Origin: Escherichia coli O157:H7
GTDB lineage: Bacteria; Pseudomonadota; Gammaproteobacteria; Enterobacterales; Enterobacteriaceae
Length of the DNA stretch: 64,000 bases
NCBI RefSeq assembly: GCF_013167455.1
Contig: NZ_CP038328.1
Reading direction: 5' to 3' (one strand)
The first letter of the stretch is position 1. Each line of letters begins with the position of its first letter. The position numbers are program-made. Shown here in pieces: positions 39,101 through 42,100 of this stretch.

Positions 39101-42100
39101 GGCGGCTATTGAACAAATTAACTGGCAGTTGCAGGGTGCCGATTTACCAAAACAAGGTATTCAGGGGCAGGGGAGTTTCCAGGCCCAGTGGCAGGAGTCA
39201 CGTAAACGCCTTTCATTTAACCAAATTAGTTTGACCGCCAATGATAGTACGCTGAGCGGGCAAGCACAGGTCACGCTGACAGAGAAACCGGAATGGCAGC
39301 TGAGGCTGCAATTCCCGCAACTGAATCTTGACAACCTCATCCCGCTTAATGAAACCGCGAATGGTGAAAACGGTGCCGCGCAGCAGGGGCAGAGCCAATC
39401 AACGTTGCCGCGCCCGGTTATTTCTTCGCGTATTGATGAACCGGCCTATCAGGGACTGCAAGGCTTTACGGCTGATATTTTGTTGCAGGCCAGTAACGTG
39501 CGCTGGCGCGGAATGAATTTTACAGATGTTGCCACGCAAATGACCAACAAGTCGGGTTTGCTGGAAATTACTCAACTACAGGGCAAGCTTAACGGTGGAC
39601 AGGTTTCACTGCCGGGCACGCTGGACGCGACATCAATAAATCCGCGGATAAACTTCCAGCCACGGCTGGAAAACGTTGAGATTGGCACCATTCTGAAGGC
39701 GTTTAACTATCCGATTTCGTTGACCGGAAAAATGTCATTGGCTGGTGATTTCTCCGGTGCTGACATAGATGCCGACGCATTCCGCCACAACTGGCAAGGA
39801 CAGGCACATGTCGAAATGGCCGATACGCGCATGGAAGGGATGAACTTCCAGCAGATGATTCAGCAAGCGGTAGAACGTAATGGTGGTGATGTGAAGGCCG
39901 CTGAAAACTTCGATAACGTAACGCGTCTTGACCGCTTTACCACCGATTTGACGTTGAAGGATGGCGTCGTGACGTTAAACGACATGCAAGGTCAATCGCC
40001 TGTGCTGGCGCTTACAGGGGAAGGCATGTTGAATCTGGCAGATCAAACCTGCGACACCCAGTTTGATATTCGGGTCGTGGGTGGCTGGAACGGGGAAAGC
40101 AAACTGATTGATTTCCTCAAAGAAACGCCAGTACCGCTGCGGGTTTATGGCAACTGGCAGCAACTCAATTACAGTCTGCAAGTGGATCAGTTACTGCGCA
40201 AACATCTACAGGACGAAGCGAAACGTCGCCTGAATGACTGGGCCGAGCGGAATAAAGATTCCCGCAATGGCAAAGATGTGAAGAAGTTGCTGGAGAAGAT
40301 GTAAGACAAGTTATATAGATGGCGGCATCAATTTGTCGCCATCTGTATTTATAGCACTAAGCAGCATGTGGATATTGAACTTCAATACGTTGAATATGTA
40401 GTCCTGCATGAGCCATCATGGTGATCAATTTATCGATACTAAAGATCTGGATTTTACCTCTGGCAAGTTCAGAGATGCGAGGTTGAGTGACCCCTAAAGC
40501 AGAAGCTGCCTGAGCCTGGCTAAACCCTTGTTGTTCAATCCAGTTATTAATGATCGTTACAAGCTCGGCACGGATCCGCATATTTTCCGCTTGTTCAGGG
40601 GTGTCACTCACCGCATCCCACACACTATCAAAGGTTTCAATTTTCATTTTTCCGCTCCTGAACAAGTTCTTTATAGCGTCGTTTGGCTAAATCAATATCC
40701 GATTGACTGGTAGTCTGTGTTTTCTTTTGAAAACAATGCAATACGTAAACCGCTTCTTCAAATTTTGCGACATACATGACGCGATAGATCCCATCAGCAT
40801 CGCGAGTACGAATCTCTCGCACACCAGGGCCGATAGTTGAAAAAGGTTTCCAGTCGTATGGGTTTAACCCTTGTTGGATCCTGTCGAGTTGATAGCCAAT
40901 TTCCTGTCGAGACGATTCTGGAAATGCGCGTAAATCGTCAAGACTGGTATCAAGAAAAGCCAGCTTTTTTCTCATTACTCCATCCTTAGATTATACTAAA
41001 TTTTGTATAAATCAAATGCGCAGTTTGAACCTGCGCATTTGATGTTTTATCACACCTCGTACTCCATCTCGCCATCCTTACGCAGCGGTATAATCTGCAC
41101 CTTCTGCACGCGATGGCTTTCCACCTGCAACGTTTTAAGCAAATAATCCCCCACCTGAACTTCTTCGCCAGGTTTTGGAATACGCTGCAAATATTCCATC
41201 AATAGCCCGGCAATGGTGTGATATTCACGTTTTTCATCCAGCGGCAGCGGCACATATTGCACCAGATCTTCCAGCGGCATATGACCATTCGCCGTCCAGG
41301 AACCGTCCGCATTCTTCTGAATATCATGGCGGGCGTCGATCTCTTCCACTTCGTTCGGTAAGTTACCGGCAATGGTTTCAGTGACGTCACTTAATGTCAC
41401 AATCCCTTCCACCGAGCCAAACTCATCCACCACAAAAGCAAAGTGTGTGCGGGCATTACGGAACTGCTCCAGGGCAGGTAACAACGGCAAGGTTTCCGGG
41501 AACACCAGCGGCTGGCGAATTAACACCCGCAGGTTGAGCGGTTCGCCGCGCAGTGATTGTTGTAACAGGTCGATAACGTGAACAACACCGAGCAAATCTT
41601 CCGCGTCATCGCCATCAGTAACCACCAGCCGCGTATGCTGATTTCGCTCCAGCAACTGGCGGATCTCGTCTTCCGGCGCGTTGAGATCGATATGCTCAAT
41701 ATCGTGGCGCGACGTCATAATGCTGCTGACGGTACGCTGGTTAAGATTAAGTACCCGCTCAATCATCCGCCGTTCCTGCGGATTAAAGATCTGCTGGTTA
41801 CCATGATCCACCAGCATGGACGCGGTTTCGGCGTCCAGTTCCGCATCCTCTTTTTGCCCGCTAAGCAGGCGCATTACCGCTTCGGTAGTCCGCTGGCGCA
41901 GTGTCTGGTTAGCGGAAAGAAAACGTCGCCGGTTAAAGATAGCCAACTGATTGAGCGCCTCGATCATCACCGAGAAACCAATGGCAGCGTACAGGTAGCC
42001 TTTCGGAATGACGAAGCCGAAACCTTCTGCCACCAGGCTAAAGCCAATCATCAACAGGAAGCTTAAGCAGAGAATAACGATGGTCGGGTGACTGTTAACA

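Follow-up and report, generated by a model that had tools for sequence, protein, structure and literature searches.

Tad-Ata toxin-antitoxin (TA) modules were reportedly defined by Dziewit et al. in 2007, with plasmid pAMI2 of Paracoccus aminophilus as the source. The group combines a COG4679 toxin with a COG5606 antitoxin (PMC2701414, Makarova et al. 2009), and a Gp49/DUF891 toxin, an HTH_37/COG5606 antitoxin, a toxin-first gene order and an association with plasmids and phages are features that it has in common with the gene pair described here, located between asmA and yegH of Escherichia coli O157:H7. HigBA2 of A. baumannii pAB120 and the Tad-Ata/HigBA module of IncC plasmids are reverse-order operons as well (PMC5906591, PMC8265657); unlike the O157 pair, both are plasmid-borne and experimentally characterised. 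In A. baumannii the Gp49-type HigB2 is reported to be a ribonuclease, and HigA2 represses the promoter, the complex doing so more strongly (PMC5906591). RNase activity and autorepression in the characterised modules thus provide a functional precedent for the O157 pair.

More distant relatives share the gene order. Canonical HigBA systems (Proteus vulgaris Rts1; HigB/HigA of K-12) are also toxin-first and pair a RelE-superfamily toxin with an XRE-type HTH antitoxin, but they belong to other Pfam and NCBIfam families than the O157 pair, and Gp49 toxins have been described as little similar to canonical HigBs (PMC5906591). Phage N15, whose gp49 is the namesake of Pfam Gp49, carries a toxin-first gp49/gp48 operon; the O157 toxin is 33% identical to gp49 over 95 aa (E=1e-16), while BLASTP finds nothing in common between gp48 and the O157 antitoxin, so that gp48 represents a different HTH type. 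Unlike O157, N15 has no TATAC-N8-GTATA operator in the upstream region. The best structural and profile matches of the O157 toxin are Mycobacterium tuberculosis (Mtb) HigB1 (Rv1955, TAC toxin; 7nbu/7awk) and S. pneumoniae HigB (6af3/6af4), at only 21-23% identity. Cleavage of mRNA on the ribosome has been demonstrated for Mtb HigB1, which, unlike the O157 pair, forms part of a three-component system with a chaperone.

We consider the O157 pair to be, very probably, a type II TA module of the Tad-Ata family (Gp49/COG4679 + COG5606/HTH_37), often named 'HigBA', of the kind carried by plasmids and phages but in a chromosomal copy. It is likened to the pAMI2 module by its domain families, and differs from it in its place on the chromosome, fixed with a core gene on either side. 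Neither searches by asmA, yegH and toxin, nor by the tags ECs2869/ECs2870/Z3229/Z3230, nor by sequence found experiments on the asmA-yegH pair in the searchable literature.

Gene organisation and family assignment

The asmA-yegH interval of E. coli O157:H7 holds two overlapping minus-strand ORFs, the toxin gene preceding the antitoxin gene (Table 1). An initial annotation had already read two toxin-first ORFs of 112 and 96 aa here, and all of these features lie where it had placed them. As in Tad-Ata modules, the toxin gene comes first and an HTH_37 antitoxin gene overlaps it, in this case by 11 nt. That figure had been given as the distance from the antitoxin ATG to the toxin stop; it holds for the overlap when the stop codon is counted in, since the A of the ATG precedes the T of the toxin TGA by 8 nt. 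Most homologue loci (70 of 83) have an overlap of 4 nt, compared with 11 nt in O157. From the arrangement of start and stop codons, we infer that the two genes are probably translationally coupled. RefSeq likewise starts the antitoxin at the ATG at 40647; a longer, 102-aa reading from a TTG is also possible.

Table 1. Coordinates of genes and sequence features in and around the asmA-yegH interval of E. coli O157:H7.
Feature	Position	Strand	Basis
asmA	38451..40304	+	flanking gene
Terminator-like hairpin where asmA and the antitoxin gene converge	40313..40348	both	inverted-repeat search and folding
Antitoxin gene, 96 aa, ATG at 40647	40357..40647	-	ORF; Sakai ECs2870, WP_000687872.1
Overlap of toxin 3' and antitoxin 5' ends, 11 nt	40637..40647	-	sequence and RefSeq coordinates
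Toxin gene, 112 aa, ATG start	40637..40975	-	ORF; Sakai ECs2869, WP_001227701.1
GGAG 5' of the antitoxin ATG	40655-40658	-	sequence
Toxin Shine-Dalgarno region AAGGATGGAG	40978..40987	-	read from sequence
TATAAT, putative -10 element of the TA pair	40990..40995	-	sequence
20-bp near-perfect palindrome TTATACAAAATTTAGTATAA, proposed autoregulatory operator	40991..41010	-	inverted-repeat search and conservation
Inverted repeat, 13-bp arms ATCAAATGCGCAG-N7-CTGCGCATTTGAT	41011..41043	-	inverted-repeat search and folding
yegH	41050..42699	-	flanking gene

The toxin, whose sequence includes VYVLHCFQKKTQ, matches Pfam Gp49 (PF05973, DUF891) across the complete model (E=1.5e-30, 105.6 bits, model positions 1-90/90), and this domain is present in all 120 toxin homologues listed. 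Its partner matches Pfam HTH_37 (PF13744, E=5e-22), corresponds to COG5606, the 'Ata'-type XRE-like predicted repressors, and aligns with PDB entry 2a6c (E=3.4e-14). Far beyond chance, these Pfam matches bear out the reading of a Gp49/RelE-superfamily toxin with an XRE-like HTH partner. The label 'HigB/HigA-like' is apt for gene order and superfamily, but not for family: the Pfam search returned no match of the toxin to the canonical HigB family, and the antitoxin reaches 16.3 bits where the canonical HigA model, NCBIfam TIGR02607, has its cut-off at 47.7. The toxin likewise falls short of NCBIfam TIGR02683 (upstrm_HI1419 RelE/ParE toxin; 27 bits, cut-off 62.85). With all NCBIfam matches sub-threshold, neither protein can be given an equivalog name; RefSeq calls the ECs2869 product 'type II toxin-antitoxin system RelE/ParE family toxin' and labels the partner an HTH protein. 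The pair falls into PHROG families phrog_2523 and phrog_2339, and PADLOC defence-system models gave only weak matches (NsnC, E=0.0014; PDC-M64C, E=6e-5) that do not amount to membership.

Pairing of the two genes is invariant: all 88 homologue loci have an antitoxin homologue directly 3' of the toxin. An AF2 model of a toxin-linker-antitoxin fusion (pTM 0.83, each half with pLDDT >90) suggests that the two proteins form a complex. The N-terminal segment of the antitoxin, FDSVWDAVSDTPEQAENMRIRAEL, is conserved in the family, and this strand/helix segment may be what neutralises the toxin.

Where asmA and the antitoxin gene converge, the hairpin folds more stably as asmA-strand RNA (+ strand, -23.7 kcal/mol, z -6.6; - strand, -14.3, z -3.2). 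Rfam gave no matches across positions 40100-41300.

Toxin fold and predicted activity

The AF2 model of the toxin (pLDDT 95.1) shows a predicted RelE-type alpha/beta fold. The best 16 matches in a Foldseek search of the PDB are all HigB or RelE toxins with probability 1.0, led by S. pneumoniae HigB (6af4), M. tuberculosis HigB1 (7nbu/7awk), V. cholerae HigB2 (5jaa) and RelE; the best of them reach TM 0.6-0.69 and include the ribosome-bound form of Mtb HigB1, 7nbu. In a profile alignment, on which this correspondence is based, E54, R56, R65, F82, K84 and Q87 of the O157 toxin align with E66, R68, R77, F93, K95 and Q98 of Mtb HigB1, named as pocket residues (PMC9098466). E54, R56, R65, F82 and K84 are invariant or at least 90% conserved among 76 family representatives. 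K99 of HigB1 has no equivalent in the O157 toxin, which carries T88 at this position, where the family consensus is K.

We propose that the toxin would bind the ribosomal A site and cleave mRNA in the manner of Mtb HigB1 and RelE. A ParE-like gyrase poison would be compatible with the RefSeq label 'RelE/ParE family' and with the fold that RelE and ParE have in common, V. cholerae ParE2 appearing at Foldseek rank 17 (E=0.029, TMq 0.42). Such an activity is nevertheless highly improbable: HigB or RelE RNases make up all of the leading matches in fold and in sequence, conservation extends to the residues that align with the HigB1/RelE catalytic pocket, ribonuclease activity has been reported for a Gp49-type toxin (PMC5906591), and adenine-rich mRNA transcripts have been described as the target of the homologue on IncC plasmids (PMC8265657). 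Membership of the Gp49 family does not in itself guarantee toxicity, since HigB2 and HigB3 of Mtb, counted among the toxins with a Gp49 domain (PMC5906591), were non-toxic in assays (PMC9098466).

Candidate operator and the hairpin next to yegH

Upstream of the toxin gene, the palindrome TTATACAAAATTTAGTATAA overlaps the TATAAT hexamer, which had been noted earlier near a different repeat and is indeed present on the minus strand. TTATACAAAATTTAGTATAA recurs base for base in Salmonella plasmid homologues, whose remaining upstream DNA is unrelated. Within the last 60 nt upstream of the toxin, the family operator consensus tATACAAAATTTTGTATAat is found with at most 4 mismatches in 68 of 85 loci, compared with none of ~1600 background windows at up to 5 mismatches, and TATAC-N8-GTATA occurs once in the window (the whole 64-kb stretch of DNA analysed), where 0.02 occurrences are expected. 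The palindrome is therefore likely to be the operator of the TA pair, judging from symmetry and conservation, and an antitoxin dimer would bind it through the HTH and thereby repress the promoter. A sequence search of the searchable literature returned no report of this operator motif for the O157 clade.

The promoter itself is less clear-cut. No -35 element lies at the canonical spacing of 16-18 nt upstream of TATAAT, TTGATT being found only 14 nt upstream, and a consensus promoter scan calls no minus-strand promoter for the TA pair, so that a canonical sigma-70 promoter is unconfirmed. Relatives have a TTGc motif 17 nt upstream of TATAat. The clade may have a single operator, tATACAAAATTTTGTATAat, fused to the -10 element; in most members its distance to the start codon is ~8 nt, so that the toxin mRNAs would be leaderless.

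The initial annotation had instead assigned the operator to a perfect 10-bp inverted repeat, AAATGCGCAG/CTGCGCATTT, at 41014..41040. The repeat is exact and extends to 13-bp arms, beginning 6 nt past the yegH stop (TGA). As RNA it folds with -23.4 kcal/mol (z = -6.3), a value reached by none of 200 shuffles; the U-tract is imperfect, with UUUGAU within the stem followed by UUAU, and the stem is followed by UUAUACAAAAU. A terminator scan calls it terminator-like on the + strand only. That this GC-rich repeat serves as the antitoxin operator is very unlikely. Its strength and exactness, a 3' arm that abuts or overlaps the zone expected for a -35 element, and its retention in those E. coli alleles in which the promoter survives would fit such a role. 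The repeat is, however, confined to 3 of the 97 loci compared, all three TA-positive E. coli, and is missing in every non-E. coli locus, including the Salmonella plasmid modules that keep the palindrome. It also lies next to yegH and just outside the block of DNA shared with the closest plasmid homologues, which ends at ~41012-41015. With 13-bp arms and a loop of 7 nt, it looks more like an RNA hairpin than like a site for an HTH dimer, and gene 49 of phage N15 likewise has an annotated terminator stem-loop upstream. The regulatory element is thus corrected: the candidate operator is the adjacent, family-conserved palindrome, and the hairpin is, on sequence grounds, most likely the intrinsic terminator of yegH or an insulator before the TA promoter. 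In this role it would end yegH transcription and shield the TA promoter from read-through.

Alleles, mobile origin and significance

Some part of the islet, if only a trace, is found in 910 of 5426 complete E. coli genomes (~1 in 6), of which ~731 have an undeleted toxin 5' region. Records with at least 99% identity over the interval number 324, and 9 of the 11 listed at this level are 100% identical. As the initial annotation had proposed, K-12 does not have the TA pair at this site; it carries an unrelated intergenic sequence of 273 bp that includes a REP. Against Rfam, the K-12 allele yields only a sub-threshold, REP-derived match to naRNA4. The proposal of an accessory insertion held in its first part, the locus being accessory, but not in its second: in the K-12 alignment the sequences differ all the way between the stop codons of yegH and asmA, no target site is duplicated, and a simple insertion was rejected in favour of an alternative allele spanning the whole intergenic region. 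Hybrid alleles also exist, in which TA remnants are joined to K-12-type sequence. Some E. coli lineages have a 23-bp frameshifting deletion in the toxin, others have lost the toxin N-terminus together with the promoter and kept the antitoxin, and in several the antitoxin is intact although the toxin is destroyed.

The nearest relatives outside E. coli (79-82% aa) are on Salmonella contigs with IncFII repA and Tra/conjugative plasmid genes, followed by plasmids of Erwinia, Pantoea and Serratia at 70-74% aa, and DNA similarity to plasmid homologues is confined to positions ~40370-41015 of the window. Of three E. coli plasmid records, the one inspected, NZ_CP083887, was rejected as a true plasmid location: asmA and dcd adjoin the module there, which marks the record as a chromosomal fragment. 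We propose that a cassette of ~655 bp, comprising the proposed operator and the two genes, was probably captured from a mobile element. It now forms one of several alternative asmA-yegH alleles, and in some lineages it is decaying, the toxin end first.

Decay elsewhere raises the question of whether the O157:H7 module is itself an inert, poorly expressed relic that has no current activity and is heading for loss. The missing canonical -35, the toxin deletions and promoter losses of other lineages, the T88 replacement and the non-toxicity of some Gp49 toxins in assays (PMC9098466) would be in keeping with this. We nonetheless consider it unlikely. Both O157 ORFs are intact, the conserved toxin positions, the candidate operator, a perfect TATAAT and both Shine-Dalgarno sequences are kept, and the near-uniform identity among the records and the many genomes with an undeleted toxin 5' region weigh in the same direction. 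A further idea is that the chromosomal copy counters its plasmid-borne relatives, by anti-addiction or by cross-regulation. It is prompted by the 20-bp candidate operator shared base for base with the Salmonella IncFII/conjugative-gene contigs and by the lineages that keep the antitoxin after destruction of the toxin, and we regard it as unlikely.

The TA pair is real, ordinary and already known, belonging to a described family and being labelled by RefSeq in several hundred E. coli genomes; as one more accessory type II TA locus it has little importance in itself. For the Gp49/HTH_37 clade, tATACAAAATTTTGTATAat offers a testable, family-wide operator consensus. For E. coli, asmA-yegH emerges as a polymorphic site occupied by an intact TA pair, a toxin-dead pair with surviving antitoxin, remnants or the K-12 REP allele, and these alleles could serve as a small lineage marker and as an example of TA decay.

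An overlapping gene pair between asmA and yegH

Two small, overlapping minus-strand open reading frames (ORFs) lie between asmA and yegH where the initial annotation had placed them, encoding a toxin (ECs2869) and an antitoxin (ECs2870). The interval matches E. coli O157:H7 chromosomes at 100% identity, and the genes were annotated before now: in strain Sakai as 'toxin RelE' and 'transcriptional regulator', and in current RefSeq as 'type II toxin-antitoxin system RelE/ParE family toxin' and 'helix-turn-helix domain-containing protein'. The literature searched yielded no papers on the asmA-yegH toxin-antitoxin (TA) locus. 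Elsewhere in the window, a 49-aa ORF between yegH and wza (RefSeq hypothetical protein WP_162829205.1) is found in non-O157 strains as well, and the diguanylate cyclase gene dgcE (yegE), located upstream of udk (comparison loci L001, 1-493, and L093, 29249-32567), is intact in K-12 and a frameshifted pseudogene according to O157:H7 records.

Features of the asmA-yegH interval and its surroundings in window coordinates
Feature	Position	Strand	Remark
dgcE (yegE)	~33800-37100		
asmA	38451..40304	+	flanks TA pair
Segment replaced by K-12-type allele	40305-41049		
Hairpin	40313-40348		separates convergent asmA and antitoxin genes
Antitoxin ORF	ATG at 40647, ends 40357	-	96 aa
Toxin ORF	40637..40975	-	112 aa
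Deletion in strain AR216.2b	40889-40911		23 bp
TATAAT	40990..40995		upstream of toxin
Palindrome	40991-41010		candidate operator
Inverted repeat as initially called	41014..41040		
GC-rich hairpin	41011..41043		13-bp arms, 7-nt loop
yegH	41050..42699	-	flanks TA pair
49-aa ORF	42834-42983	-	

Family relationships and predicted fold

The toxin covers the whole Pfam Gp49 model (PF05973, DUF891; E=1.5e-30), and the antitoxin matches HTH_37 (PF13744; E=5e-22) and, more weakly, HTH_3 and HTH_31, with the HTH protein 2a6c as its nearest solved structure (E=3e-14). The NCBIfam RelE/ParE toxin model (27 bits; cut-off 62.85) and HigA model (16.3 bits; cut-off 47.7) scored below threshold. A COG4679/Gp49 toxin paired with a COG5606 HTH antitoxin constitutes the published Tad-Ata system (PMC2701414). 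This toxin family is large, comprising 7804 proteins at E<=1e-5 in a word-indexed search and 3934 clusters at 50% identity in an exhaustive search (E<=1e-3). An antitoxin homologue follows the toxin in 88/88 fetched homologue loci; the gene overlap, 11 nt in the O157 sequence, is 4 nt in 70 of 83.

The closest relatives outside E. coli (79-82% amino acid identity) are Salmonella copies adjoining IncFII repA or Tra genes, and those at 70-74% reside on Erwinia, Pantoea and Serratia plasmids. The O157 toxin is much nearer to a Mycobacterium abscessus prophage toxin (58% identical; phage collection matches H73-H84) than to gp49 of the E. coli phage N15, the namesake of the Pfam family (33%), whose antitoxin gp48 is unrelated to that of O157. 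The mycobacterial likeness points to wide horizontal spread of the O157 toxin clade.

From 76 family representatives, AlphaFold gave a confident toxin model (pLDDT 95.1), whose best PDB matches were HigB and RelE ribonuclease toxins, including Streptococcus pneumoniae HigB (6af4), Mycobacterium tuberculosis HigB1 (among them the ribosome-bound 7nbu), Vibrio cholerae HigB2 and several RelE structures, with ParE ranking far below. In a profile alignment, O157 E54, R56, R65, F82, K84 and Q87 align with HigB1 E66, R68, R77, F93, K95 and Q98, which form the pocket described for the ribosome-bound toxin (PMC9098466); the residue equivalent to HigB1 K99 is T88. A fused toxin-linker-antitoxin model based on 33 paired loci reached a pTM of 0.83, with pLDDT >90 for both halves. 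Its conserved antitoxin N-terminus is ordered, a strand leading into helices, and the model as a whole is consistent with a defined complex.

Upstream palindrome and GC-rich hairpin

The inverted repeat initially proposed as the operator is real and extends into a longer GC-rich hairpin, but its assignment as operator is not supported: it occurs in only three loci, all E. coli, among 97, begins 6 nt downstream of the yegH TGA, and a different palindrome is conserved. The hairpin folds strongly (-23.4 kcal/mol, z = -6.3) and is followed by a U-rich stretch with an imperfect U-tract. Together with its E. coli-only distribution and its position behind yegH, these features make it look like a yegH terminator, or an insulator ahead of the co-directional TA promoter. 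In phage N15, a terminator is annotated at the equivalent position relative to gene 49.

The conserved element is TTATACAAAATTTAGTATAA, which the Salmonella plasmid copies share base for base, immediately before the ribosome-binding site; further upstream, plasmid DNA is unrelated to O157. DNA similarity between the two is confined to window ~41012-41015 to 40370-40403, that is, from the palindrome to near the end of the antitoxin gene. The 85 distinct upstream regions compared, drawn from a GTDB scan (80 genomes) and plasmid loci, yield the consensus cTTG.c-N4-tATACAAAATTTTGTATAat, a family-wide candidate operator that was not found in the literature searched. Strict TAC-N8-GTA occurs <=60 nt from the start codon in 55/85 regions, against ~0.005 expected per locus from the remainder of the same loci. 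The 18-mer consensus is matched with <=4 mismatches in 68 of the 85, while none of ~1600 background windows reached even <=5. TATAC-N8-GTATA occurs once in the 64-kb window, at the TA upstream site (0.02 expected). In L008, a Tra-gene contig of Salmonella diarizonae, a second, divergent Gp49 and HTH pair (6175-6504 and 5913-6194) lies ~1.5 kb from a close homologue of the O157 module, and this palindrome is absent upstream of it.

The O157 TA promoter has a perfect -10 and no -35 at normal spacing, and a promoter scan called no minus-strand promoter. In most family members (L013-L092), the operator/-10 ends ~8 nt, and the -10 hexamer ~6 nt, before the toxin start. Since this leaves no room for a Shine-Dalgarno sequence, leaderless toxin mRNAs are suggested for these members; enterobacterial copies, including O157, have a 15-16 nt gap and a Shine-Dalgarno sequence.

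An allele series at the asmA-yegH site

As the initial annotation had stated, K-12 lacks the pair at this site: K-12 MG1655 has an unrelated intergenic region of 273 bp versus 745 bp in O157, with divergence bounded exactly by the yegH stop codon and a few bases short of the asmA stop. The module is accessory in E. coli. Among 5426 complete genomes, any part of the O157-type region is present in 910, at least 80% of it in 792 and the undeleted toxin 5' segment in 731, and 3819 carry the K-12-type region at >=80% coverage. Of the E. coli 'plasmid' records, the one examined contains asmA and dcd as well, so it is a chromosomal fragment.

Decayed alleles exist as well. Strain AR216.2b has lost 23 bp between CTCGACAGGA direct repeats, so that its toxin gene is out of frame and its antitoxin gene still intact; in CUVET21-1780, K-12-type sequence takes the place of the toxin N-terminus, promoter and hairpin, again with an intact antitoxin; and WB61 retains only a 104-nt TA remnant beside asmA. 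What occupies the site is therefore one allele of a polymorphic intergenic region, so that of the proposed accessory insertion the accessory status stands and the clean insertion does not. Erosion of the module begins at the toxin side. In CUVET21-1780 and WB61, yegH is annotated as frameshifted or truncated.

The K-12-type allele (K-12 locus L002, 3487-3759), which displaces the toxin-proximal part of the TA pair in hybrid alleles, consists of a REP element (sub-threshold naRNA4 match, 31.6 bits, and no other Rfam match in the region) and a ~195-nt single-copy segment with a 21-codon ORF (3526-3591, +) preceded by AAGGAA. The K-12-type region folds unusually strongly (z = -4.6 over 291 nt).

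Judged on these features, the O157 pair is a real and intact type II TA module, an ordinary member of the Tad-Ata / Gp49-'HigB' family, with toxicity, neutralisation and DNA binding predicted. Mtb HigB2 and HigB3, described as Gp49-domain toxins (PMC5906591), were non-toxic in published assays (PMC9098466). Functional precedent for the O157 module comes from the Gp49-type 'HigB' of A. baumannii pAB120, with reported RNase activity and autorepression (PMC5906591), and that of IncC plasmids, which is reported to act on adenine-rich mRNA (PMC8265657). To the existing annotation, our analysis adds a reassignment of the regulatory elements (candidate operator versus hairpin), the family-wide candidate operator consensus and, for the asmA-yegH site, a series of alleles.
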